A DNA stretch of 64,000 nucleotides from Patescibacteria group bacterium (GTDB lineage: Bacteria > Patescibacteriota > Patescibacteriia > UBA2591 > JAQUPP01). Made by a program: the position numbers and the translations under genes. The notes beneath the pieces are model-generated. The model was given only the letters and a program-made list of their open reading frames with translations. It did no database searches and was not told the DNA's origin. The DNA is taken from contig JAQUPP010000002.1 in the NCBI GenBank assembly GCA_028716665.1, forward strand, positions 203,717-267,716, read 5' to 3'. Positions 204 to 14,740 of this stretch are shown piece after piece. How positions within the stretch are numbered: the stretch's first letter is position 1; every line of letters begins with the position of its first letter.

Positions 204-737
204 ATGAGCAACTATATTTTGCAAAATTTAAATTTTATTATCTTCTCGTCGGTTTTATTTTTAACAATTCTGTTTATTATCATTTTATTCTCAATATTCA
301 TAAAAATAATTCATAAAGATAATATATCCGTAAAATTTAATGAACTCCATTTAAAAATTAGAGAGGAAATTAAGTACGCAGTAACTCCTAAATTTATAAA
401 CGTGTCGGCCGAGGTGAATGAGATTACTGATCTTGCGGTTGAAATATGGCGCATTGAACAGCGTATCGCAAAATCCGCTTCAAGCTTATCAGAACAACAA
501 CTTATGGGATTAGATAATTCAGTTCAAAAATTGAAACGGTATCTTTCAAAATACGATATTGAAATCTTGGATTATAAAAATACAAAATATAACGACGGTC
601 TTAATCTTGATATCCTGTCTATTGAAAAAAATTCTTCTTTACCTGAGCCAATCATAAAAGAAATAATCGAGCCAACTATTATGTGTAAGGGCCAGGTTGT
701 TCGTAAAGCAAAAATTATTTTAATAAACAATCATTAA
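204..737 (+). CDS. Membrane-anchored GrpE-like protein (putative Hsp70 nucleotide-exchange factor)
   Basis: N-terminal hydrophobic helix, coiled-coil middle, and a C-terminus (KYNDGLNLDIL...IIKEIIEPTIMCKGQVVRKAKIIL) resembling the GrpE beta-head. Ends 9 bp before the Hsp70 gene. Confidence 0.65.
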   Translation: MSNYILQNLNFIIFSSVLFLTILFIIILFSIFIKIIHKDNISVKFNELHLKIREEIKYAVTPKFINVSAEVNEITDLAVEIWRIEQRIAKSASSLSEQQLMGLDNSVQKLKRYLSKYDIEILDYKNTKYNDGLNLDILSIEKNSSLPEPIIKEIIEPTIMCKGQVVRKAKIILINNH

Positions 738-746
738 TTTGTTAAT

Positions 747-3251
747 ATGGCTAATCAACAAAACATTTCAATAGGTATTGATCTTGGAACAACCAATTCG
801 TCTGTTGCCATCAATAACAACGGTAACATCGAAATCATAAAAAGGGCGGGGGGCGTGGAATATACGCCGTCCGTTTTTGGCTTTAATAGAGATGAAAATA
901 AAGTAGTTGGCCAAAAGGCTTATGAGAGTTTTTATAGATCTGCAGACGTAAAAAACTACAAACCGGAAGTAAAAAGATTGATGGGCTCTTCAGAGAAGTT
1001 TCACTTCGAGAGAGTAAATATAGACATGGGGCCGGAAGAAATATCTGCTGAAATCCTTCAGAGCCTAAAAGAGGACATTCTAAGAAAATATCCAAACTTT
1101 AATACTGTAGCCGCCGTAATTACGGTTCCAGCCGCTTTCTCTGTATTACAGTCGGAGGCAACTAAACGGGCTGGTAATCTTGCCGGATTTAAACACGTAG
1201 TTTTATTACAAGAACCTATCGCTGCGGCTGCTGCTTACGGCTCCACAAATATCAAGAATGAAAACTGGCTCATTTACGACTTTGGTGGTGGCACATTTGA
1301 TGTTGCATTAATTGCTTCCAAAGACAGAGCGCTTTCAGTGCTTGGCCATAACGGTGACAATTTCCTTGGTGGTAAAAACTTTGATTTAGAGATTGTCGAT
1401 AAAATAATAGTACCAAAAATCTTAGAGAAGTTTTCCGTCAAAAACTTCAACAGGAATAATGAAAAGTATATAAGTGCCTTCTCTCGATTAAAGTTCTCTG
1501 CAGAGACGGCTAAAATAGAACTCTCTGAATATAATAAAACCTCAATCGTGGTAGAAAATGTCGGGAAGGACGATGAGGATAAGGAGATTTTTCTCTCCAT
1601 TAATTTTACGAGAAAAGAATTTGAAAATCTTATCAAACCAATGGTTGACCGCACTATCGAGCTTTCTAGGAAAACCCTGAAAGATGCCGGCATTAAGAGT
1701 GGTTCTGTTGCTAAAGTGATTCTCGTTGGTGGTCCGACTCAGATTCCATATATTCGAGAAAGAATAGAGAATGATCTCAAAATAACTGCTGATGCGTCTG
1801 TTGATCCTTTAACTGTCGTTGCGAGAGGTGCTTGCGTGTTTGGTATCGGCCAGAAGATTCCAAAGGAATTCCAAGAAAATGATGGTAAAAAACTCCGAGA
1901 AGGAACTCTTTCTATTGATCTAAATTACGATTCCGTTACTTCTGACACAGAGGCAACGATCGCGGGAATCATAGAAGACCTCAAAGATGCTAAGGATGAA
2001 TATTATGTACAAATTCAATCTGACAGTGGCTTTTATAACGGTTCAAAGAAAAAACTAAAAGGCGGTAAATTTTTTGACACAGTTTCTGTCGAGCCGAATA
2101 AGTCTAATGTTTACTGGATTTATCTTTTTGACAAAGAAGGTAATTCTGTTCCAGTTGATCAAGATTCTTTTACCATTACTCAGGGTCAGACGATATCGGG
2201 TATACCCTTGTCCCATTCGGTAAAAATAGTTGTGGTTCAAAAGGATTATACGAGGAATGTGGCTTTTAATATTTGTGACCTAGTTTTTGATAAAGGGTCA
2301 ATACTTCCTATTAAAAAAACTTTATATGTGTATAAAACATCAAGAAAGCTAAAGAAGGGCGAAGAGAATGATCTTGATATTATAGTGGTTGAAGGAGAAT
2401 CCGATATGCCAGATCGTAATGGATTTTTATGCAAAGTGGGTATCCCTGGCAAGGATCTACCCCATGATCTTCCCGAAGGAACTCCGGTAGAAATAACTGT
2501 TGTGATGAATGAATCACAAGAAGTTTTTGTTACTGCTCATATTCCACTGATTGATTTTACTGTTAATGCTCGCTCCACTTTTCACAATGAGACAATTGAT
2601 CTTAAGAATATCGAACAGGATTTAGAAATTCAAAAAGAAAGAGCAAAGGTTGTCTCTGAAAATTTGTCGCCCGATGAAAGAAAAACAATTGATAATGATA
2701 TTCAATCCGCCCAAACGAGCGTTAATAATTCTTCCATAGACGAAGATGAAAAAATGAAAGCGAATAAACAAATTAAAGATATTAAGATTGCGTTGGATAA
2801 AATTGAAAAAGAAAAGGAAATGCCTCAACTGGTTAAGGAATTTAAAGATGGTATTCAAGATACACAATCGATCATCAATGACTACGCAGATGAAAAAGAC
2901 AAAGATATAAACAATGATCAATTAAATAAGCTCATTAAAGAAGGAGAGAAAGCAATAGCCGATAATGATAAATCTCTTTTGATTCGGACCAATGAACAAA
3001 TTAACGAACTTCGCTCAAAAGCCGTTTATTCTAACCCGGCCACATGGATTCATCAGTTTAAAAAAATTACTGATAGCAAGCCAGACTTTACTAATGAAAA
3101 AGAAGCAAAGTATTATATTGAAAAGGGCAAAAGAGCGATTGAACTTGGTGATGTCGATGAGATAAAACGTTGCGTCCGTAATTTGTCGCTGTTACTCCCG
3201 TCTGATGTACAAGAAAAAATAAAAGATAATCTTTCGGGCATTACCCGCTAA
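747..3251 (+). CDS. Specialised Hsp70-family protein (834 aa, probably not the housekeeping DnaK)
   Basis: Hsp70 motifs GIDLGTTNS, KRLMG, VITVPA, LQEPIAAA, YDFGGGTFD, LGGKNFD, LVGGPTQIP. Extra domain after the ATPase domain and an extended helical C-terminus. Confidence 0.95.
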   Translation: MANQQNISIGIDLGTTNSSVAINNNGNIEIIKRAGGVEYTPSVFGFNRDENKVVGQKAYESFYRSADVKNYKPEVKRLMGSSEKFHFERVNIDMGPEEISAEILQSLKEDILRKYPNFNTVAAVITVPAAFSVLQSEATKRAGNLAGFKHVVLLQEPIAAAAAYGSTNIKNENWLIYDFGGGTFDVALIASKDRALSVLGHNGDNFLGGKNFDLEIVDKIIVPKILEKFSVKNFNRNNEKYISAFSRLKFSAETAKIELSEYNKTSIVVENVGKDDEDKEIFLSINFTRKEFENLIKPMVDRTIELSRKTLKDAGIKSGSVAKVILVGGPTQIPYIRERIENDLKITADASVDPLTVVARGACVFGIGQKIPKEFQENDGKKLREGTLSIDLNYDSVTSDTEATIAGIIEDLKDAKDEYYVQIQSDSGFYNGSKKKLKGGKFFDTVSVEPNKSNVYWIYLFDKEGNSVPVDQDSFTITQGQTISGIPLSHSVKIVVVQKDYTRNVAFNICDLVFDKGSILPIKKTLYVYKTSRKLKKGEENDLDIIVVEGESDMPDRNGFLCKVGIPGKDLPHDLPEGTPVEITVVMNESQEVFVTAHIPLIDFTVNARSTFHNETIDLKNIEQDLEIQKERAKVVSENLSPDERKTIDNDIQSAQTSVNNSSIDEDEKMKANKQIKDIKIALDKIEKEKEMPQLVKEFKDGIQDTQSIINDYADEKDKDINNDQLNKLIKEGEKAIADNDKSLLIRTNEQINELRSKAVYSNPATWIHQFKKITDSKPDFTNEKEAKYYIEKGKRAIELGDVDEIKRCVRNLSLLLPSDVQEKIKDNLSGITR

Positions 3252-3256
3252 ACCAT

Positions 3257-4891
3257 ATGTCATCTACACTCAAAAACAACGCATATCACATCCTTGGACT
3301 AGATACTTCTGCTAGTGAGAAAGATATTCTTAAACGCTCAAAGGAGATTATTAATCGTCTTAAGGCTGATGACACTCCTGACTACGATTTAGATATTGGA
3401 TTGTTTAAAGATTTTCGGACAGAGGATGCAGTAAAAGATGCCCTGCAGCGACTCCAAGCTTCCAAGAAACGGATCAAAGAATATTTCTTTTGGTTTCAGA
3501 TAGCAGATAGCGTCGATGAGCAGGTACTGGGTCTGTTTAAATTTAAAGATTACTTGAATGCCATTCGCACTTGGCAGAATGTGGCCGAAGGTCAAAGTAC
3601 GAAAGCTTTCTCTTATAAGAAGAATCTTGCTATTTTGTATTGCCTTGTACTCTCTGCCGAGGATGATAAAGACTATCTAAGAAGTTCCTTAGTTGCATGG
3701 AAAGAACTTATAGACTCAGATAAATTTTGGACTTTTTTTTCTGAAGTCTACAAACTTCATGATGAACAAACTGCCAGCGAAGATATTATTTTTGATTTCA
3801 AAAAGCATGTAGTAAGTTATCTGGCCGATATTTATACGGATTTATATCAAACCCATAAAAATGTAGATTATATTAGTCAATTTCAAAAAGTTTTTTCAGT
3901 AAAAGGTGAGCGAATAGAAAAAAACGTTTTAGAACCAGCATACCAAATGATTAATAATGCCGTTGATGAACTTGAAAAAATGGAAGTGAGTAAGGATAGT
4001 ATATTTGATAAAGAAGAGTCAGAAACAATCAAGAGGCTTATTACTACAATACAGAAGGAACTCAATCAACTGATTGATTTAAGACTCTATGACGATAGTC
4101 AGACCAAAATAATGCGGGATCGCTCGGCTAATGCCTTACGATCTATTGCTTTGGATTTACACAATAACTTAAGCGAGCTTGATAAATCTCGAGGACTTTT
4201 AGAGGTAGCAATTAAGTTCGCTGGTATGGAATCCTTGAAATACGAACTTCAAGGTCAACTCGAACAAATCCAAAAAAATATCAAAGACGATGCAGAAAAT
4301 TCTCTTACCATAGACGTACCGGGCACGTTTGGGAGAGGTACGGTTATTTTTAAGAATAACTATCTTGAATACAATAACAAGAAAATATTCTATAAAGACG
4401 CGACAAGTATTTCTTATCATGCCCATTCGCAGTCAATAAACTTTATTCCGGCTTCACAATCGTTCAGTTACATGGTTGCTTCGCCAAATGAGACTATTTC
4501 ATTCTCATTTGGAACTACCCTCTATATTGGTCACAAAACAATGCAAGAGGTGTGGGGAAAGTTGATTGGGCTTTCAGAGGGACTAATTGAGTCACATATT
4601 ATAGAAAGTATGGTCGATCAAATTTTTGATCGCGATAAACCCATAACCATTGGTCGTATTGAATTCTCCAAACAAGGATATTCACAAACCAAATCCAAGC
4701 TATTTGGCAAGAGCGAGAAAGAGATAGTTTACTGGACGGATACTATTTACACCCCAAAGTTCAGTTCCGGAATGGTAGTTTTATGGAAAGATAAAAACGG
4801 AGTGAGTCAACAATTTACCACAATAGCGATGTCGACGCCAAATGCGGTTGTAATACCAGGGTTAGTTAAAGCATGCATTAATCGTCTATAA
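3257..4891 (+). CDS. J-domain-like protein lacking HPD, with a helical repeat region
   Basis: N-terminus NAYHILGLDTSASEKDILKR matches J-domain helices I-II. No HPD motif. Directly follows the Hsp70. Confidence 0.6.
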   Translation: MSSTLKNNAYHILGLDTSASEKDILKRSKEIINRLKADDTPDYDLDIGLFKDFRTEDAVKDALQRLQASKKRIKEYFFWFQIADSVDEQVLGLFKFKDYLNAIRTWQNVAEGQSTKAFSYKKNLAILYCLVLSAEDDKDYLRSSLVAWKELIDSDKFWTFFSEVYKLHDEQTASEDIIFDFKKHVVSYLADIYTDLYQTHKNVDYISQFQKVFSVKGERIEKNVLEPAYQMINNAVDELEKMEVSKDSIFDKEESETIKRLITTIQKELNQLIDLRLYDDSQTKIMRDRSANALRSIALDLHNNLSELDKSRGLLEVAIKFAGMESLKYELQGQLEQIQKNIKDDAENSLTIDVPGTFGRGTVIFKNNYLEYNNKKIFYKDATSISYHAHSQSINFIPASQSFSYMVASPNETISFSFGTTLYIGHKTMQEVWGKLIGLSEGLIESHIIESMVDQIFDRDKPITIGRIEFSKQGYSQTKSKLFGKSEKEIVYWTDTIYTPKFSSGMVVLWKDKNGVSQQFTTIAMSTPNAVVIPGLVKACINRL

Positions 4892-4895
4892 ATAC

Positions 4896-5549
4896 ATGGA
4901 AAATGATAAAAAACATTTGGATATCGACCTTGAATTCCTTGATAAAAAGGAGCCGACTAGAGTTACACCGCCTAAGCTAGAATCTCCTAAGGGTAGCGAA
5001 CCAAACTGGCGATATTACGATAAAGACAAGGCTAATGCTAATTCCGGCTCTGGTAAAAAATATAAATGGAAAAATATTTTAATAATAGGTGGCGTTGTTA
5101 TATTCTTTGGCTGGGTTATTTTTTCAAATAGTAACTCAAAGAATGATACTAATACCGGAAGCTATACACCACCTAGTGTAAATCAAGTGTCGTCGAATAG
5201 TAATACGGTTGTGATAGGTGAATATAGATGTTTAAGTTATAACTACGATAGAGCAGTCGCACTTACTCCCAGTGAAAGTGAACAGCAAATAGATACCGCC
5301 AGAAATGACTTGGAATATAAAAGTAATGAGCTTGATCGTTTGAAAAATAAAATTGATAGTTCTTATGTGGATGAATACTCATCGCAATATGAGATTAATC
5401 AATACAATGAGACGGTGAACGATTATAATATTAAACTTACTTCATATAAGCGAGACGAGGCAAATTTTAATTCGCGGGTTGAAAGATATAATACCCAAAT
5501 TGAAGCCCATAATAATTATTTAAGAAATAATTGCACACTTAATAGATAA
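4896..5549 (+). CDS. Bitopic membrane protein with extracytoplasmic coiled coil
   Basis: Single TM segment (ILIIGGVVIFFGWVIF), heptad-rich C-terminus, two Cys. Operonic spacing. Confidence 0.6.
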   Translation: MENDKKHLDIDLEFLDKKEPTRVTPPKLESPKGSEPNWRYYDKDKANANSGSGKKYKWKNILIIGGVVIFFGWVIFSNSNSKNDTNTGSYTPPSVNQVSSNSNTVVIGEYRCLSYNYDRAVALTPSESEQQIDTARNDLEYKSNELDRLKNKIDSSYVDEYSSQYEINQYNETVNDYNIKLTSYKRDEANFNSRVERYNTQIEAHNNYLRNNCTLNR

Positions 5550-5553
5550 AGTT

Positions 5554-6630
5554 ATGACAACATTAACGAAACCAATTCTCTATAATGGATTCAAAGTCAA
5601 AGACGGGTTAACCGTCAAAAATCGCATTGAGCGAATTTTCTTTACCGAAGTATATGCGTTATCTGACGGATCTTTTTTATACTTATTTTTTAATCTTAAA
5701 CCAAACGAGATATTTGATCGTCGCGAAAAATACGACCTTGTTAGAATAAAAAAAGAAGGAGAGGAATTACCTGGTGTTATTGTTAAGGATTATTCGAATC
5801 GTCAATTATTAACAGCTATTGAAGATCTAACTACGACAAAAGGTTTTGATTGTGTCGCTGGAATGGATAAATTAAAAACTTTTTTAATTAAAAAAGTTAT
5901 TGAACCACTTCGAAATCCTGAAAAATTTAAGAAATACAGACTCTCAATTCCAAACGGTATTTTACTGTACGGACCACCCGGATGCGGAAAAACATTTATT
6001 GTCAACAAACTGGCAGAAGAATTGGGATACAACTTTGTTGAATTAAAACCCTCATCGGTTGCAGTTCCTTATGTTCACGGTGCTGTTAATAAGATTGCCG
6101 AACTTTTTGAAAGGGCAAAATTACAAGCACCGTCAATTGTATTTATTGATGATGCCGAAGCACTTATACCAAAAACAGAAGAGCTATCATTTAGTGCGGA
6201 TATAAAAAAAGAAGAAATTAACCAATTTAAACTAGAACTAAATAATATTGGAGAGAAGAAAATTCTTGTTGTTTATGCAACAAACTGGCCAGAAATGATT
6301 GATTTAGCAATACTTAGAGGCGGAAGAACGGATTATAAGATATATGTTCCTGCGCCAGATTTTGATGCTAGAAAGGGACTATTTATAAATTTTCTTTCAG
6401 GAAGACCCTGTGGCAAAGAAATTGATATAGAAAAATTAGCAAAGATGACAAATAATTATGCGAGTACCGATATTGAACTTATAGTTAAAAATGCGGCTTA
6501 CGTGGCATTAGAGTTGGAAAAAAATATTGATGAAAAAATGTTAATTAAATCAATAAACAAACTTAATTCATCAATTTCGCCAGAACAAATTCGACATTAC
6601 GAACAACTTAGTGGTATGGAAAGGTGGTAG
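5554..6630 (+). CDS. AAA+ ATPase (classical CDC48/FtsH-like clade)
   Basis: Walker A GPPGCGKT, Walker B IVFIDD, and SRH ATNWPEMIDLAILRGGRTD. Confidence 0.9.
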   Translation: MTTLTKPILYNGFKVKDGLTVKNRIERIFFTEVYALSDGSFLYLFFNLKPNEIFDRREKYDLVRIKKEGEELPGVIVKDYSNRQLLTAIEDLTTTKGFDCVAGMDKLKTFLIKKVIEPLRNPEKFKKYRLSIPNGILLYGPPGCGKTFIVNKLAEELGYNFVELKPSSVAVPYVHGAVNKIAELFERAKLQAPSIVFIDDAEALIPKTEELSFSADIKKEEINQFKLELNNIGEKKILVVYATNWPEMIDLAILRGGRTDYKIYVPAPDFDARKGLFINFLSGRPCGKEIDIEKLAKMTNNYASTDIELIVKNAAYVALELEKNIDEKMLIKSINKLNSSISPEQIRHYEQLSGMERW

Positions 6631-6703
6631 TTTTAGGTGATGACGCACCAATGAAATTGGTACTGGTATCTTTAGGGGAATTAGCATTATAACTTTTAAA
6701 CAA

Positions 6704-7525
6704 ATGAAGAACTGTCAATTTTGTAAAAATTCTATCACCGACAATAATGACATTTGTCCTTATTGTCGGCGGGTTTTGGTTGAAAGAATTTATTCTAATT
6801 CAAAACACACATCACACACTGTCAATCAAGGCGCAAAAATCTCGATTAATAGAAAATTAAAAAATTATTTTAAGCAACTAAGCAATAAATTTAAAAAAAT
6901 AAAATGGAATAATTTTAAAAAATATATTCCAATTCTTGCTCTACTACTGTTAATTATTTTTATCAGCCTCCAAAAAGAAAAAAATAACACGCATACAACT
7001 TATAGTCATACTCCAGTTTCGGTTATTCCAAGCAACGAGAATTCATCGATTAAATTGAGTGATACTCCAGTGGCTCAAATCAAAGATCCCAAAAACTATA
7101 TTTCATTGCCCAATGGCACACCTCTATCCAAAAATACTTATTATTTTAATGGATTGGGACAATTAAAAATAGACAATGGGACGAGCCTAGATGCTATAGC
7201 TAAACTAGTAGATATCACAACCAATAAATCGATTCTTACAGTATATATAAAAGCTAATAGTACTTATGATATTAATAAAATATTAGATGGCAATTATAAA
7301 CTATTCTTTAATCTCGGAAATGATTGGAGCACAGAAGTTAAGGCGTTCGCCGTAAATTCTAGCTATGAAGTTTTTAAAGAAAATTTTGACTTTACTACAT
7401 CAGAGTATAGAGAAGGCGATTATATACGCACACGATATATAACTTTTAGCGTAACATTAAATCCTGTAATTGGCGGACAAGCTAAAACAGAAGAAATTAA
7501 CGCGGTAGAATTCGGTGGCTATTAA
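6704..7525 (+). CDS. Zinc-ribbon bitopic membrane protein with extracytoplasmic beta domain
   Basis: CQFC...CPYC at the N-terminus and a TM segment IPILALLLLIIFISL. Confidence 0.65.
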   Translation: MKNCQFCKNSITDNNDICPYCRRVLVERIYSNSKHTSHTVNQGAKISINRKLKNYFKQLSNKFKKIKWNNFKKYIPILALLLLIIFISLQKEKNNTHTTYSHTPVSVIPSNENSSIKLSDTPVAQIKDPKNYISLPNGTPLSKNTYYFNGLGQLKIDNGTSLDAIAKLVDITTNKSILTVYIKANSTYDINKILDGNYKLFFNLGNDWSTEVKAFAVNSSYEVFKENFDFTTSEYREGDYIRTRYITFSVTLNPVIGGQAKTEEINAVEFGGY

Positions 7526-7561
7526 AAATAGATAAGAATAAAATAAGATAATACGGTTTAC

Positions 7562-7596
7562 TTTAAAGAGGTGAGATAAAATCTCACCTCTTTAAA
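7562..7596 (+). terminator. Hairpin terminator closing the Hsp70 operon
   Basis: Perfect inverted repeat TTTAAAGAGGTGAGAT-aaa-ATCTCACCTCTTTAAA. Confidence 0.7.
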
Positions 7597-7648
7597 TTGA
7601 ATAAATACAAAAATCTGCTATAATGAAAACAAAGTTTAGAAAATAAAT

Positions 7649-8761
7649 ATGACAAAAATATATTTTACAAGATATTTTATAGAAACTCCTAACTCTGTTG
7701 GTAATCGTAGAAATATAGAATCAGGTAAGATTTTGGGGTTGAAATTTAAGCTAGGTAGTAATGAAATATCTTTCTATGATCATGATAAAGGTCTTTCTTC
7801 TGATTGTTATATTGAAGCAGACTCCTTGAACGATGCTGAGAATAAATCGAAGGTTTTTATAGAAAACATTTTAAACTTAATTGATCTCTCAATGTCATCT
7901 GCCTCAGCATCTCCCCAATTTATAACATCTTATAATGCTTCTTCTAATTTGCCCATCAGAGAATATAAGCAAATTTTATATGTTCCTATACGAGAAAGAA
8001 ATATCGCAGTGATTGATCAAGATTTCTTCGGCAAATTATTTAACCTTCTTGATAAAAATAAAGACAAAAGAACGGAAATGGCTATATCTTGGTTAAGAAA
8101 GGGGTACCTTGAGCAAAAACATGTTGATAAATTTATTGCTTTTTGGACTGGATTAGAATCTATAAATGAGTTATTATGTGATTTATTTATTATTCCTCAG
8201 GAGGAAAGGAAATTAAAATGTAAAAAATGCGGTGAAGTCCTTCATCCAATTACAACCGGAATTAAAAAATTATTTATTGATGAGATAAAAATTAACGATA
8301 AAAAATTTGAAGATATAAGAAAAGCAAGGGGCAAACTTTTACATGGTGGTCCATTAGATAATATTTTTATTAATGAAATTAAAGAATATAATCCTATTGT
8401 TAAAAAAACTTTAATAGTGGGATTAGGTAAATTATTAGGGATGGAAGGAAAAGATATAGATAAAATAATTAAACAAAAATCTAATTTATATAATGAAACA
8501 ATCAGATTTATTATTAAGGCGAATTTAGTAAATTTTGAACCGCCCAAAATTAACGAATTTGGCAAACAACCTAAAATAGATTTAATTGAGGAAAATTTAT
8601 TAAATCGTATAATAGATAGCAAAGGAAAACTGAGTTTAAAATTAGAAACAACGTTAAAATTAAATGCCAATTTTAATAATATAACCTTTGAAGTATGGGG
8701 CGAGGATAATACTTGTATAAAAAGTATCAAGATTGATGATATCAAGAAAGTAACTGAATAA
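7649..8761 (+). CDS. HEPN-domain protein (ApeA/MauJ-like) with a CxxC insert
   Basis: AISWLRKG...DKFIAFWTGLESI, the R-x4-H motif RGKLLH, and CKKC. Confidence 0.6.
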   Translation: MTKIYFTRYFIETPNSVGNRRNIESGKILGLKFKLGSNEISFYDHDKGLSSDCYIEADSLNDAENKSKVFIENILNLIDLSMSSASASPQFITSYNASSNLPIREYKQILYVPIRERNIAVIDQDFFGKLFNLLDKNKDKRTEMAISWLRKGYLEQKHVDKFIAFWTGLESINELLCDLFIIPQEERKLKCKKCGEVLHPITTGIKKLFIDEIKINDKKFEDIRKARGKLLHGGPLDNIFINEIKEYNPIVKKTLIVGLGKLLGMEGKDIDKIIKQKSNLYNETIRFIIKANLVNFEPPKINEFGKQPKIDLIEENLLNRIIDSKGKLSLKLETTLKLNANFNNITFEVWGEDNTCIKSIKIDDIKKVTE

Positions 8762-8786
8762 ACAATAGAAAAATATATTAAGTAAT

Positions 8787-9404
8787 ATGACCATAGAAAA
8801 TTCTTTAAAACATTTAGAATCTTTAAAAGAAAGTTACATCAAGATAACCAAGGAGATGCTACAAGCGAATAATGGTAATTTATACTCATTTGATTTGTTT
8901 ATTCTTGGAATAATCAAGAGGTCTATTTTGTTGACAACGGGATTTTGTACATTAGTGCGACAGAATAATTTTTTAAGCGCAGCCCCGCTTATTCGATTAC
9001 ATCTAGACAATCTATTACAGATGCACGCGGCTTTTATTGTGAAAAATTCAGATGATTTTTCGTTTAAAAAGATAAAGGGAGAGCAAACAAATAATTTAAA
9101 AGACTTAAAGGGGAATAAAATGACGGATAATTACTTAGCAATGTCACTCTCAGAAATAAAAGAAACTTCGTGGGTTTTAAATTTATACAAAGAAACATCA
9201 AAATTTGTGCACATCAGTGATAAACATATTTTGAGTGTAGTAGAGAAATTAGATGAAGGCGGTGTTATTGATTTTGTTATTTCAGATAAACAAACAATCC
9301 CAGAGAAACACGCCACTGAAGCTGCACAAGCTATGATAAGTATTACTGAACAATTATTTCGGTATGTGTATGGATGGATACATGTAAAAAATAAAAAGTC
9401 ATAA
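8787..9404 (+). CDS. Helical HEPN-like protein (DUF5677-like)
   Basis: SAAPLIRLHLDN and LYKETSKFVH patterns. Confidence 0.45.
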   Translation: MTIENSLKHLESLKESYIKITKEMLQANNGNLYSFDLFILGIIKRSILLTTGFCTLVRQNNFLSAAPLIRLHLDNLLQMHAAFIVKNSDDFSFKKIKGEQTNNLKDLKGNKMTDNYLAMSLSEIKETSWVLNLYKETSKFVHISDKHILSVVEKLDEGGVIDFVISDKQTIPEKHATEAAQAMISITEQLFRYVYGWIHVKNKKS

Positions 9405-9455
9405 GTGTTTTATGGCTGACTGGCCAACAAAAAATAATTAAATAATTTAAGACAT

Positions 9456-10211
9456 ATGAATATACAAAAACCATTTTATAAGATGTTTAGGCCAAATAAA
9501 CAGAAGGATGGATATTTTGGGGATTACGTTATTGATTATAGAAACATTTTGGATTGGAGTTCCCCGATTAGGGCCTTTAATTTAATAATTGAAGATTTTA
9601 AAAAAATTTGTGAATATATTGATCCAAGTGATGAGAATACTGCGGTTTATTCTCATAGATTATACGAAATATTTATTAGAACTTGCACGGAATTAGAGTC
9701 CAATATGAAGGCAATATTAAAGGCAAATGGATATGTAAAAACTGGGAGATGGTGGGATATGACTGATTACAAAAAGTTAGAACCTGTATTAAAATTATCT
9801 GATTATGAAGTGTTAATAAATTTTTGGAACAATGGTAGGGGAATGAGTGGTGGTTGCGTCCCTTTTAGAAATTGGGCACAGAGCAAGAGTGGTATACTAG
9901 TTTGGTATCAAGATTACAATAATGTAAAACACTCTAGGGAAGAAAACTTTCATTTAGCTTCTTTGGGTAATTTACTTGACTCAATCTGTGGGTTATTTAT
10001 AATTTTGTTTTCTCAATATGGTGTTCAAATTTTTAATCCCTACCAAATTGTAAAGAGTTATGACGAAGATGATTTGGGTAAAATAATTTCTAAAGATTCC
10101 TTTATATTTAGTATCAAACCACCCGAATGGCGCGAAAACGAAAAATACGATTTTGATTGGGATATAATTAGAGCAGAGAAAAATCCTTTTCAGGAGTTTA
10201 AATCATTTTAA
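9456..10211 (+). CDS. Hypothetical protein, probable divergent HEPN
   Basis: IRTCTELES and WYQDYNNVKHSR (YNxxKH) patterns. Island context. Confidence 0.45.
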   Translation: MNIQKPFYKMFRPNKQKDGYFGDYVIDYRNILDWSSPIRAFNLIIEDFKKICEYIDPSDENTAVYSHRLYEIFIRTCTELESNMKAILKANGYVKTGRWWDMTDYKKLEPVLKLSDYEVLINFWNNGRGMSGGCVPFRNWAQSKSGILVWYQDYNNVKHSREENFHLASLGNLLDSICGLFIILFSQYGVQIFNPYQIVKSYDEDDLGKIISKDSFIFSIKPPEWRENEKYDFDWDIIRAEKNPFQEFKSF

Positions 10212-10231: not shown

Positions 10232-10957
10232 ATGATCGAAATATATTTTGATGGTGCTTGCGAGCCAGTAAATCCCGGTGGTACTGCAAGTTATGGTTAT
10301 TTAATTAAGAGGGACAATCAAATTATTGAGCGCGGTTCAGGTATTATAGGCAAAGGAGAAGGAATGACAAACAATGTGGCCGAGTATTATGGTTTGATCG
10401 AAGGAATAAAAGCTCTTAAAAAATTAAGAATTGAAGAAAAGGTAATGATTTATGGTGATAGTAAAATGGTGTGTTGTATTGTTGCGAAAGAATGGGGATG
10501 GAAAAAGAAAAAGACGGTATGGATGCCCCATGAAACAGCTTTACATTTAAAAAAGTTACTTGATGAAGCCTTAAAATATTTAGAGGGTATGGATTATAAT
10601 ATTCAATGGGTGACGAGAGAGAAGAATCAAGAAGCTGATGATTTATCGAAAGAACCACTTATTAAAGCGGGTATTATTAAATCTATTTACCCTAAATATA
10701 ATTTTACAAAGAAAATAGATAAAGAAAAGGAAAAGCATATCATTAAATCTAAAATTAAGAAAAAACCCCAAGAAGGGGATGCTTGTCCTAAAAATTGTGG
10801 TGGAATTCTTTATTGGGCAAACAGCAAAATGACCCCCAAAAAAATGCGGAGGATTTATCATTTTGAAAAATGGCTTAAGTGTAATAAATGTAGGACTGTT
10901 TTCTTTGATGAAAAATATAAAATTATTCATCAAAATGAAACTAAATCATTATTTTAG
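10232..10957 (+). CDS. rnhA: Ribonuclease HI (type 1) with C-terminal Zn finger
   Basis: YFDGAC, TNNVAEY, GDSK and REKNQEADDLS supply the D-E-D-D catalytic set. C-terminal CPKNC...CNKC. Confidence 0.85.
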   Translation: MIEIYFDGACEPVNPGGTASYGYLIKRDNQIIERGSGIIGKGEGMTNNVAEYYGLIEGIKALKKLRIEEKVMIYGDSKMVCCIVAKEWGWKKKKTVWMPHETALHLKKLLDEALKYLEGMDYNIQWVTREKNQEADDLSKEPLIKAGIIKSIYPKYNFTKKIDKEKEKHIIKSKIKKKPQEGDACPKNCGGILYWANSKMTPKKMRRIYHFEKWLKCNKCRTVFFDEKYKIIHQNETKSLF

Positions 10958-11011: not shown

Positions 11012-11098
11012 CTAACTTCTCGGATTCAAATCCGGTATATAAACATATCCAGTTTGTCTTTGAATTATGGTTCTAACGTCCTCTACGATGCGGAGCCA
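11012..11098 (-). pseudogene. Possible orphan 3' tail of a site-specific recombinase at an att junction
   Basis: The minus strand reads WLRIVEDVRTIIQRQTGYVYIPDLNPRS* starting exactly at the GGAGCCA core, with no start codon. The resemblance to CPR recombinase C-termini is from memory and was not searched. Confidence 0.4.
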
Positions 11099-11158
11099 AA
11101 AAAATAACCGCTTATTTAAGCGGTTATTTTTTTATATCCATCGTGGAAGTTAGAACTT
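11092..11158 (+). repeat. Direct repeat copy A (putative attR: tRNA-type 3' end plus terminator)
   Basis: GGAGCCA-A6-TAACCGCTTATTTAAGCGGTTA-T7-ATA...GTGGAAGTTAGAACTT, near-identical to 14593-14658. Confidence 0.85.
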
Positions 11159-11348
11159 GTTTTAAATTAGAAAAACAATTGATTGATAAAAAGTCAAATT
11201 ATGATATAATAAAAAATAAGTGTACGGACAGCTGTCCTGCCTTACTAAATCAATTTTACAATACAGACCTTTACTGAACTGACTAAAAAATGTATTGGTA
11301 TTTGTTCGTGGATAGAAAAGTATAATAATAGAATGAATAATCTAAAAA

Positions 11349-12920
11349 ATGGATAATAACTTATTACAAAAATTAAAAGATTGGCGGAAAGCGAAAGCTG
11401 AGGCAGAAGGAGTCCCAGTTTTTAGAGTTTTTTCTAATGCTGTCATAGAAGCTATTGCTCAATTTAAACCAAAAGACAAAGAAGCTCTTTTCTTGATAAA
11501 AGGTATCCGTGATAGAAAATATAATAAATATGGTGAAGCTATATTGGCTTTAGTTAATGGAGGGCAAGAAGGGCCGGAATTTTTTGCGGATAATTTTATA
11601 AAAGACGAAGAAAGTAAGCCATTTTCAGTTAGTGACTATCTTAATTTTCTTAATAATCAATTGAGTAAAGATACAGCGCGAATTCAAGGAGAGATTAGTA
11701 GTTTAGATATAAGAGACAAAGTAGTTTACTTTTCTTTAAAAGATTCTAAAGATGAAAGTGTTATTAACTGCCTTATTTGGAAAAATGTTTACGAATTAAA
11801 CGGAGTTGAATTTGAAGTAGGAATGGAGATTATATTAAGTGGTTGTCCAGATATCTATAAACCCAGTGGCCGTTTATCATTTAAAGCTTCGTCTGTAGAA
11901 TTAGTTGGTGAAGGGGCATTAAAAATTGCATATGAAAAACTTAAAGCGAAATTACAAAAAGAAGGCTTATTTGATGAAGCAAGAAAGAAACCTATTCCTT
12001 TATATCCTAATAAGATTGGCTTAATTACTTCGAAAAGTGGTGCTGTGATAGCAGATTTTTCTACTAACATAGGAAGATTTGGATATAAAATATCTTTGAT
12101 AGATTCAAGAGTTGAGGGTCAGTTGGCAACAGAAGAATTATTAAACTCTATAAAAACATTTAGAAATAAAGATATTGATGTTCTTGTTATTATTCGAGGT
12201 GGAGGTTCCATGGAATCTTTTTTACCATTTAATAATGAAGTTCTTATTAAAGAAATAGCGAGTTTCCCCGTCCCAGTTCTAGTTGGAATTGGACACGAAA
12301 AAGATGTTTCTCTTTTGGCATTGGCGTCTGATATGATGTTTTCTACACCCACAGCCGTTGCCAATTATCTAAATGAATCATGGGAGAAAGCAGAATCAGT
12401 AATAATCTTATCAGAACAAAAAGTCTTTAGAAAATTTCAAAATACAATTCAAGAAAATAAAGATTATATTAGAGACAGTTTGGATATAATGAAAAATACT
12501 TTCCAAAAAATATTTAATGATTTTTCAAAGGCCCAAGAATCATTAAAAATTGGCTTTAAATCAATTAAGGATCAGATGGTTGATATTGATAGAAGAATTA
12601 ATGGAGTTCTTATACCAGTATTTAGAAAAATAAACTTTTCCATATCAGGCATTAGAAATAACATATCCGATTCCATTATAAAAGAAATTTTTGAAGGATT
12701 TATAGATGCTAAAAATAAAATTAAGGAATCACTAATATCATATCAAAAACAACTCATCAATAATAACCCTAAAAGACAATTAAAATTAGGATATAGTATC
12801 GTAACAAAAAATGGTCGAATTTTGAAAACAACCAGTCAAATACAAAAAGGAGATATTGTTAGCGTTGGATTAAGTGAGGGCGTATTTGATTCAGAGGTCA
12901 AAATTATTAAAAATAATTAA
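11349..12920 (+). CDS. xseA: Exodeoxyribonuclease VII large subunit with N-terminal HRDC domain
   Basis: OB fold (GEISS...VYFSLKD), RGGGS, VGIGHEKD, STPTA, LKLGYSIV. N-terminal HRDC LKDWRKAKAEAEGVPVFRVFSN...KYGEAIL. Confidence 0.93.
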   Translation: MDNNLLQKLKDWRKAKAEAEGVPVFRVFSNAVIEAIAQFKPKDKEALFLIKGIRDRKYNKYGEAILALVNGGQEGPEFFADNFIKDEESKPFSVSDYLNFLNNQLSKDTARIQGEISSLDIRDKVVYFSLKDSKDESVINCLIWKNVYELNGVEFEVGMEIILSGCPDIYKPSGRLSFKASSVELVGEGALKIAYEKLKAKLQKEGLFDEARKKPIPLYPNKIGLITSKSGAVIADFSTNIGRFGYKISLIDSRVEGQLATEELLNSIKTFRNKDIDVLVIIRGGGSMESFLPFNNEVLIKEIASFPVPVLVGIGHEKDVSLLALASDMMFSTPTAVANYLNESWEKAESVIILSEQKVFRKFQNTIQENKDYIRDSLDIMKNTFQKIFNDFSKAQESLKIGFKSIKDQMVDIDRRINGVLIPVFRKINFSISGIRNNISDSIIKEIFEGFIDAKNKIKESLISYQKQLINNNPKRQLKLGYSIVTKNGRILKTTSQIQKGDIVSVGLSEGVFDSEVKIIKNN

Positions 12921-13213: not shown

Positions 13214-14467
13214 ATGAATAAACATACAACAACAATTATTCCTATTGAGCCATGGCTTTATCATTCGCCTAAACTAAAACTCAAAGGATCAATTATAGAT
13301 ATAGGATTAATATGTGAATCTTTAATTTATTATGAAAAAATATTTATTAATATAGATATCCTTTCTAAAAACTTTTTATTTAATGAAATTATAAAATGGT
13401 TTAAACAACAGGATGCATATAAAGATTTTTTACGACTTTTGGACGAGGGTATTATAAATTTTGTTTATCATTCTTTTTTTACATCTCCTATTTTTGATCC
13501 TAGAAATAATACTTATAGTATCTGGAATCTTGAGGACGAAGAATCAAAAGAAAAAGATATTTTTAATTCTAGAGTTTTATATAACGATGAATTGAATAAA
13601 ATAATTAAAGGAAGAGAAAGACAACAACTATATAGAGTAATTGAAAATAAAGTCATTGAATTTAGGGCAGACAAATTCAAAGATGCAGTTGAAAATGCTA
13701 GAGCTGATTACGAAAAAGTAGATACTTGTAATATTATTGTTCAAAGTTTTGTTGATGAATTATATAAAGAATTTGATTTCGGAAAACCACCTGTTATAAG
13801 TAGTAAAATAAATAAAATGGGAGAAAAAATTAATATTTCCTGGAATATTAATTTTGATGAATTAAATAAAAAAACGAATAATAAATTTAAAATAAATCCA
13901 GGGATTCCACTTCATGGAATTGCTCATTGCAACAGGATAATTAAAACAGCGTCGCTTATAGAATCGGATATATGTTTGGGAGAAGTTATGAGCAGTTTAG
14001 TCAATAATAAATTATCTGAAATTAACTTAAAGAATAATGATAAAGTTTTGAATATTATTAAAGAATTAAATCAAGAAGTAGAATTTCCAGATATTAGGGG
14101 TTTGGTAAATAATAACTTAATAACCTTTAAGGATATTCTTGAAATCCGGAAAAAAGCATTGAAGTTTAGGAAATGGCTACAGTGTGAAGGAGAAAGAGAT
14201 AGGGATGCAATAATTGCTTATCATAACGAGGTGGCAGAGGAAGCTAAATTAGAAAAATTTGGCAAAAGTATTTTATCGTTAACAGGTGTAGTGACAGGAG
14301 GATTAATAGGGACAATTGGTGGTCCTATTGGCGGAATAGCGGGAGCAACGATGGGGTATGGAGTAGATAAATTTATTTCTTTAATAAATCAAGAATGGAA
14401 GCCAATAGTTTTTGGAAAATGGCTAACAAAGTATTCTGATAAAATTCAAAAAACGAGACATCCATAA
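13214..14467 (+). CDS. Hypothetical protein with C-terminal glycine-zipper hydrophobic hairpin
   Basis: 417-aa ORF containing LTGVVTGGLIGTIGGPIGGIAGATMG. Confidence 0.6.
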   Translation: MNKHTTTIIPIEPWLYHSPKLKLKGSIIDIGLICESLIYYEKIFINIDILSKNFLFNEIIKWFKQQDAYKDFLRLLDEGIINFVYHSFFTSPIFDPRNNTYSIWNLEDEESKEKDIFNSRVLYNDELNKIIKGRERQQLYRVIENKVIEFRADKFKDAVENARADYEKVDTCNIIVQSFVDELYKEFDFGKPPVISSKINKMGEKINISWNINFDELNKKTNNKFKINPGIPLHGIAHCNRIIKTASLIESDICLGEVMSSLVNNKLSEINLKNNDKVLNIIKELNQEVEFPDIRGLVNNNLITFKDILEIRKKALKFRKWLQCEGERDRDAIIAYHNEVAEEAKLEKFGKSILSLTGVVTGGLIGTIGGPIGGIAGATMGYGVDKFISLINQEWKPIVFGKWLTKYSDKIQKTRHP

Positions 14468-14592: not shown

Positions 14593-14658
14593 GGAGCCAA
14601 AAAATAACCGCTTATTCAAGCGGTTATTTTTTTATACTCGTTGTGGAAATTAGAACTT
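14593..14658 (+). repeat. Direct repeat copy B (putative attR, right island boundary)
   Basis: GGAGCCA...TAACCGCTTATTCAAGCGGTTA...GTGGAAATTAGAACTT. Confidence 0.85.
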
Positions 14659-14740
14659 TTTTAATGAAATTGACAAAAGTGAAAAAATATGCTATTCTAA
14701 TAATAGATAAATAATCAATTAAAAGATTTTTTAAATAAAA

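Follow-up and report, generated by a model that had tools for sequence, protein, structure and literature searches.

What would a 974-kb genome that keeps its own DnaK system do with a second, divergent Hsp70 gene set? This question is raised by the window analysed here, the whole 64,000-nucleotide stretch of contig JAQUPP010000002.1 (positions 203,717 to 267,716) from a Patescibacteria group bacterium, which carries near its start a run of genes for a GrpE-like protein, an Hsp70, a J-like adaptor, an AAA ATPase and two membrane proteins. The first four recur elsewhere as a cassette, a real and widespread specialised Hsp70 system that is apparently undescribed. As to its role, we favour, with a probability of roughly 0.45, a mobile, self-contained Hsp70-AAA machine for protective envelope surveillance; a specifically anti-phage role, as a narrower form of it, has a chance of about three in ten. 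The features are as follows (lengths in amino acids, aa).

204-737, plus strand: GrpE-like protein, 177 aa, with N-terminal membrane anchor; core gene; predicted private nucleotide exchange factor
747-3251, plus strand: specialised Hsp70, 834 aa, with nucleotide-binding domain (NBD), inserted all-beta domain, beta part of the substrate-binding domain (SBD-beta) and helical C-terminus; core gene
3257-4891, plus strand: J-like adaptor, 544 aa, with J-like N-terminus lacking HPD, helical solenoid and tandem PH-like domains; core gene
4896-5549, plus strand: single-pass membrane protein, 217 aa, with cytoplasmic N-terminal tag and outer helical hairpin
5554-6630, plus strand: single-domain classical (Cdc48/FtsH-clade) AAA ATPase, 358 aa; core gene
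6704-7525, plus strand: zinc-ribbon single-pass membrane protein, 273 aa, with outer beta domain; occasional accessory
7556-7602, plus strand: strong hairpin at the operon end, a possible terminator without a U-run
7649-10211, plus strand: three genes with weak HEPN-like motifs; island neighbours, outside the cassette

The Hsp70 and its cassette partners

An earlier note on this DNA had described six co-directional genes with gaps of 4-73 bp, and the coordinates of the open reading frames (ORFs) agree: the gaps are 9, 5, 4, 4 and 73 bp, and the 177-, 217- and 273-aa proteins have one hydrophobic helix apiece. The terminator said to close the operon stands in part, because the hairpin after gene 6 is strong (-24.5 kcal/mol, z -6.8) but has no U-run, and the terminator scan made no call there. 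Contigs from four runs of one study, perhaps the source of this DNA, have the same letters here, with no listed differences before position 10291; no RNA holder is listed. The host genome, in two contigs and assigned to Patescibacteria by homologues and gene content, keeps a separate hrcA-grpE-dnaK locus on contig C1 as well as a normal DnaJ. Therefore, the cassette is an extra system, and the possibility that its Hsp70 is the sole DnaK of the genome, which the earlier note had named as a refutation, was ruled out.

In order to see which genes belong together, we collected 97 loci, comprising 16 from genomes (found with the adaptor) and, found with the Hsp70 tail, the best 80 of 166 from metagenomes plus 1 viral locus. 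Merging at 95% left 74 non-redundant loci, of which 52 show all four core genes and are called complete here; most of the other 22 stop at a contig edge, and the family size is a lower bound. The order GrpE-like, Hsp70, J-like, (tagged membrane protein), AAA is found in 52/52 complete loci, so the co-occurrence that the earlier note had anticipated holds for the four core genes.

The Hsp70 matches Pfam HSP70 with an E value of 4e-73 over residues 9-366 only, and it has the marks of the superfamily, namely an actin-like NBD with GIDLGTT, the catalytic Lys, the Glu (EP) and DxGGGTFD; the ATP-site residues D12, T15, K76, E156, D178 and G180-T183 are invariant. After the NBD (1-370) come an all-beta insert (about 385-480), the SBD-beta (about 490-610) and a long helical tail. 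In the AlphaFold2 model (pLDDT, a per-residue confidence score, 86.5) strands 391-479 lie between NBD and SBD, the closest fold is BiP (Z 44.7, root-mean-square deviation 29.7 over 548 residues), and the model and BiP alignment reveal the SBD beta-sandwich and helical lid. However, the protein is not a canonical DnaK: it carries an insertion of about 100 residues, has the linker consensus HGLSVSGAP instead of DVLLLD, scores 259 against a cut-off of 822 for the DnaK model, and is 35-39% identical to DnaK over the NBD only. In a quick tree of 32 NBDs, which held no HscA or HscC rows and for which a careful search is unfinished, 23 cassette proteins branch apart from 9 Patescibacterial DnaKs.

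The partner proteins are more divergent. The GrpE-like protein scores 20.1 against Pfam GrpE, under the cut-off of 25.8 (E 5.5e-4), and aligns weakly with the genome's own GrpE, in the C-terminal beta part only (hhalign E 6e-4, 28%); its gene stands immediately 5' of the Hsp70 gene in all 52 complete loci. The J-like protein of the window has no Pfam match, while 24 of 42 family members match the DnaJ Pfam model at E<=1 (best 8e-5), and it aligns with the genome's own DnaJ (hhalign E 4e-5, 69%). Its N-terminus is a four-helix unit (helices 9-13, 21-36, 56-67 and 69-77), although whole-model fold searches of the 544-aa protein did not list a J fold. The HPD position has the family consensus K-I-D-D-x-P-x-Y in a loop 11 residues longer; the "TPD" of the window copy was rejected as an HPD substitute because it is not conserved (T in 11 and D in 7 of 68). 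Fold searches with middling scores place a TPR/14-3-3-like helical solenoid and then tandem PH-like domains after this unit, Foldseek gave no match for the adaptor at E<=0.001, and an Atlas search with it returned unnamed clusters only.

PMC8215388 describes DnaK R167 as binding the Asp of HPD. This position is V/I in 69/72 cassette Hsp70s and R in 0/72 (replaced in 72/72); HPD and its Hsp70 contact residue are jointly lost. The paired loss suggests a private interface, which would insulate the pair from host DnaK and DnaJ. The fourth core protein matches Pfam AAA (E 1e-27); its nearest NCBIfam model is CDC48, at a score far under the cut-off. Walker A GPPGCGKT, the pore loop YVHG, the sensor 1 TN and the conserved R255 and R258 for the arginine finger are those of a classical AAA. 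The private Hsp70 triad plus AAA that had been proposed is supported.

Scans of PADLOC, Pfam, NCBIfam and PHROGs gave no name for the cassette, and our literature search, whose scope left aside supplementary tables of defence-mining papers and subscription journals, found no description of it; within that literature the claim of an undescribed system stands. Several known systems resemble it in part. DnaK-DnaJ-GrpE with ClpB likewise combines an Hsp70 ATPase, J-like and GrpE-like partners and an AAA+ motor, but the cassette is without the DVLLLD linker, R167 and HPD, it is mobile and rare, and its single-domain AAA belongs to the Cdc48/FtsH clade, not to Clp/Hsp100. HscC of Escherichia coli, with DjlB/DjlC, is also an accessory Hsp70 with its own neighbouring J partner, insulated from DnaJ and with a poorly understood protective role; according to PMC8215388, it has 550-580 aa, no GrpE signature and HPD-type J-proteins. 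The cassette Hsp70, in contrast, has about 835 aa (834 in the window) with an inserted beta domain, and it stands with an adjacent GrpE-like gene (52/52), an adaptor without HPD, an AAA and tagged membrane proteins; it falls outside the HscC system. The GTPase-centric conflict systems (Kaur et al. 2020, PMC7159879) share Hsp70 plus GrpE in a predicted conflict operon and J or TPR modules; their other components are TRAFAC GTPases, GAP1-N2 and FNIII proteins. No such gene occurs among the six genes or recurrent neighbours, where a classical AAA and tagged membrane proteins stand instead. The EACC1-DnaK fusions of PMC12642450 are a different system. As for IetAS (AAA plus S8 protease), the cassette AAA scores against the IetA models (E 1e-25), but with 83 against a cut-off of 510, and the cassette has no S8 protease.

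Distribution and mobility

The long Hsp70 is absent from 40/40 relatives and occurs in 3/400 genomes of the phylum and in 10/400 of a Bacteroidota-centred sample. A sample centred on Woesearchaeota, where relatives also occur, gave 0/250 further genomes apart from the central one, which makes the archaeal form rare in that group. Between archaea and bacteria the copies share 53-60% identity, against 35% for the host DnaK, and this implies transfer between domains. Distant versions are plasmid-borne, in Vibrio, Shewanella, Aeromonas, Polaromonas, Sinorhizobium, Aminobacter, Pseudomonas and Haliscomenobacter, and profile comparisons link parts of the plasmid and Bacteroidota versions to the cassette of the window. 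On an Aeromonas plasmid the Hsp70 is split in two pieces (L041:13918-16415), and on a Sinorhizobium plasmid an insertion sequence interrupts it (L043:12038-16440); these genes indicate frequent decay.

The insertion site of the window copy was compared between genomes. Just before the window come dnaG, rpoD and a tRNA gene, both halves of which correspond to the tRNA-Asn in two genomes of the same genus; a group I intron (Rfam RF00028, 75 bits; contig C2, about 203354-203607, L011:1138-1391) sits in its anticodon loop, and the same tRNA-Asn is intron-less in both relatives. After the tRNA-Asn, one relative (G002) has about 18 kb of other cargo, with a serine recombinase and type III restriction-modification (R-M), followed by the same RNase H gene, and the other (G001) has yet other genes. 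The differing cargo therefore marks a variable insertion spot. For the window copy, neither an integrase nor an att repeat nor a duplicate of the tRNA 3' end turned up, and its GC content does not stand out (31-40% versus 35%). The integrated island of the earlier note is supported by the site comparison but not by GC content, integrase or att repeat. Judged from these comparisons, the cassette is horizontally mobile.

A mobile cassette might simply serve its vehicle, for example in building or recycling the element's membrane apparatus for transfer, or in keeping competing elements out. In favour of this, the DNA fetched for 30/74 loci (22/38 of those with at least 12 kb) includes a recombinase, and conjugation-type genes flank loci L035 and L037. 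Nevertheless, we regard it as very unlikely, because the vehicles are unrelated (Tn7, plasmids, prophage-like elements, integrative and conjugative elements), the cassette persists without a visible mobility gene, as in the window, and viral carriage amounts to 1 locus in IMG/VR and no match in 50,697 phage records.

Four contigs titled Pseudomonadota, Akkermansia, Gammaproteobacteria and Bacteroidota (L026, L027, L029 and L035) carry Patescibacteria-like or archaeal genes, and the genome of L029 groups with the phylum of the window; their titles or bins are probably wrong.

Tagged membrane proteins and possible functions

The 217-aa protein carries the tag HLDIDLEFL at residues 7-15, on the cytoplasmic side. 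An LDIDLEFL-type tag is common to unrelated membrane families in the same slot (helical hairpin, RDD, Yip1, cysteine-rich), and 34/52 complete loci have one or two tagged membrane proteins between adaptor and AAA; the 217-aa protein is a conserved accessory of the bacterial subtype. Proteobacterial partners (peptidoglycan-binding, SH3), which the 217-aa ectodomain resembles (hhalign 92%), carry a different common tag, GF-x-GLSSL, so that each clade has one N-terminal tag over unrelated membrane proteins. Chance matches are scarce (1 among 934 ORFs of the own genome). A second common N-terminal tag, MAYEDPNAPS, was seen on a Shewanella plasmid at the cassette end (L040:24250-25176), where an RDD protein and a membrane protein of 92 aa both carry it. 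The GrpE-like protein has an N-terminal membrane anchor in 37/52 complete loci; anchor and tagged gene occur together in 34 and are both missing in 15, with the anchor only in 3 and the tag only in 0, a pattern that is confounded with clade.

The adaptor itself varies at its end. Its C-terminal module is exchanged among close relatives (transmembrane (TM) anchor, TPR plus TM, or fused ectodomain), tails and ectodomains being swapped between otherwise close loci, and in locus L100, Sinorhizobium and Aminobacter the adaptor is directly fused to a membrane segment plus ectodomain. These fusions tie the membrane proteins to the adaptor and suggest that the tag replaces a covalent link, while the swapping of tails and ectodomains points to targets that change.

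The earlier note had offered, as an inference, a model in which membrane proteins sense and Hsp70 plus AAA remodel. Our envelope surveillance reading follows the same line. The outer domains, which vary (helical hairpin, peptidoglycan-binding, SH3, RDD, Yip1), may act as sensors, and the tag would be the docking signal by which their proteins engage the Hsp70-AAA machine; the adaptor without HPD would pass a target on to the private Hsp70, and whatever Hsp70 holds would be extracted or unfolded by the AAA ring. The benefit might be protection against envelope attack, phage entry being one candidate. Eukaryotic endoplasmic-reticulum-associated degradation, in which BiP, a J-protein and p97 extract membrane proteins, may be alike in logic, with an Hsp70, a J adaptor, a Cdc48-type unfoldase and short-motif recruitment of membrane proteins; this is analogy only, since the cassette is without a ubiquitin system, has a single AAA domain and keeps all ATPases in the cytoplasm.

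Is the attack a phage? A dedicated anti-phage system, a narrower form of envelope surveillance, would use membrane or PH-like sensors to detect a phage protein, whereupon Hsp70 and AAA would act as a switch or themselves take the phage target apart, with a small membrane protein (DUF6804, RDD) or the Bacteroidota kinase as candidate effector. A patchy, mobile, modular cassette with swapped sensor-like tails fits this idea, as does the same-genus genome with type III R-M at the same site, and Hsp70 and GrpE occur in other predicted conflict systems (PMC7159879). To assess defence association, we compared 300 of 515 neighbour ORFs, from the candidate phyla radiation (CPR)/archaeal clade only, with PADLOC at E<=1e-12, using as island control 150 of 286 ORFs around serine recombinases in relatives without the cassette and as random control 142 ORFs from arbitrary regions; generic matches (helicases, FtsK/VirB4, ParB-linked methylases and the like) were then removed by hand. 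Matches numbered 35/300 beside the cassette, 26/150 in other recombinase islands and 10/142 in random DNA, and after removal 18/300, 13/150 and 1-3/142. With loci that are not fully independent, Fisher p was 0.11 (all matches) and 0.33 (after removal) against the island control, and 0.18 (all) and 0.09 or 0.01 (after removal) against random DNA, so that the cassette exceeds random DNA on the strictest count only. Closeness to defence genes is therefore not specific to the cassette, which lies no closer to them than other island cargo, and the expected defence-island enrichment beyond such cargo did not materialise in this clade.

The contexts in free-living hosts are more suggestive, although uncontrolled: on a Polaromonas plasmid the cassette is flanked by Zorya on one side and by an AAA/helicase pair plus BREX on the other, on a Haliscomenobacter plasmid it is beside SIR2 and BREX, in some hosts it is Tn7 cargo, and a PADLOC-type neighbour (type I R-M, ThsB, BREX, PDC) stands beside 5/10 Bacteroidota loci. 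Set against this, PADLOC 2.0.0 (library from 2023) matched the cassette proteins as generic AAA only and 0/12 of the distant ones, and the loci conserve none of the known effectors, whether nuclease, NADase or another. We consider a dedicated anti-phage role possible but doubtful.

The non-specific defence proximity would also suit a role as cargo for general stress tolerance, in which a further Hsp70/AAA pair would act like a disaggregase on membrane or misfolded proteins, with the logic of DnaK-ClpB and the lifestyle of HscC, which confers cadmium and UV resistance (PMC8215388). Every part is a protein quality-control module, TerB is a conserved neighbour in Bacteroidota, and several loci lie amid housekeeping genes. 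We judge this unlikely, because the cassette is rare (0.75-2.5% of sampled genomes) and rapidly reshuffled, the canonical linker and J contact are lost, and address tags with exchangeable tails suggest specific clients rather than bulk misfolded protein.

The surveillance reading has its own difficulties. The GrpE and J assignments rest on weak sequence scores; with the linker motif and R167 gone, chaperone allostery could be lost altogether, a point made for DnaK derivatives in PMC13580251; and the AAA is missing beside the J-GrpE-Hsp70 trio in Sinorhizobium, Aminobacter, Pseudomonas and 4/10 Bacteroidota loci. A tagged membrane gene is absent from about a third of complete loci (18/52, mostly of the archaeal-type clade), which means that the core functions in its absence, and the cassette loci share no conserved toxic effector, nuclease, NADase or other output protein. 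All of these count against it.

A bolder form, which we put forward tentatively, is a chaperone-powered immunity across domains, in which clade tags would plug exchangeable envelope sensors into the private Hsp70-J-GrpE engine and the AAA unfoldase, which would extract or dismantle an invader protein at the membrane; it would be, by analogy, a prokaryotic version of BiP/p97 quality control turned to defence, and would involve neither nuclease nor toxin. If true, an Hsp70 would be driven by a J-domain without HPD, contrary to the HPD rule, and a peptide-tag code would wire membrane proteins to a chaperone; if defensive, protein-remodelling immunity would be common to ultrasmall bacteria and archaea. 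The cassette offers a complete, testable partner set in culturable hosts (Vibrio, Shewanella, Polaromonas, Haliscomenobacter).

The AAA of the window and the flanking genes

The window copy is not the best cassette for such tests. Its Walker B is DD (E200D), where DE is found in 60/60 aligned locus homologues and 117/119 database homologues; DD occurs in 3 of the best 120 AAA homologues, and the two database proteins with DD are 86% and 69% identical to the window's AAA. At sites conserved to at least 95%, this AAA has 15 departures, among them E200D and G241Y; 59 others have a median of 1 and at most 9. Its frame is intact, and the other three core genes look normal. An assembly error was excluded, as the letters are confirmed in the sequenced population and DD homologues exist. 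An E-to-D change in Walker B lowers ATP hydrolysis. With 14 further departures, the AAA of this copy is therefore likely weakened, and its step in this genome would probably be slowed; by sequence, the small DD lineage could reflect either slow decay or a retained low-activity variant. The idea that the AAA N-domain is a kinase remnant, prompted by the kinase-AAA fusion of Bacteroidota and by visual comparison, found no support (hhalign probability <1%, best E 0.08).

The earlier note does not mention the common N-terminal tag, the exchangeable end of the adaptor or the altered Walker B, and two parts of its picture fell away. The six genes are not a unit: gene 6 (273 aa) has a homologue in 3/74 non-redundant loci, and many archaeal-type loci are without both membrane genes and the GrpE anchor. 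Nor are the three downstream genes linked to the cassette, as their homologues recur in 0/97 loci; they have HEPN-like motifs only (DUF5677 E 9e-5, weak) and no PADLOC match. In the Atlas, the 273-aa protein resembles unnamed or DZR clusters. G002 has zinc-ribbon membrane genes in its alternative island (L021:7563-10030), in a layout like that of gene 6, so such genes are common island cargo. Among other neighbours, a small DUF6804 membrane gene recurs in 19/74 loci; Bacteroidota have one like it, and usually also TerB and a kinase-AAA fusion.

Near an archaeal-type cassette lie a short prokaryotic Argonaute and its associated nuclease gene (L102:18615-21378). Farther along the window, past the RNase H gene, a low-GC gene at 13214-14467 encodes a 417-aa protein with no family match in profile scans. 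The gene at 11349-12920 encodes an Exonuclease VII large subunit with an N-terminal HRDC domain, and a short palindromic repeat at 11091-11166 and 14593-14664 has further copies in the genome and in relatives.

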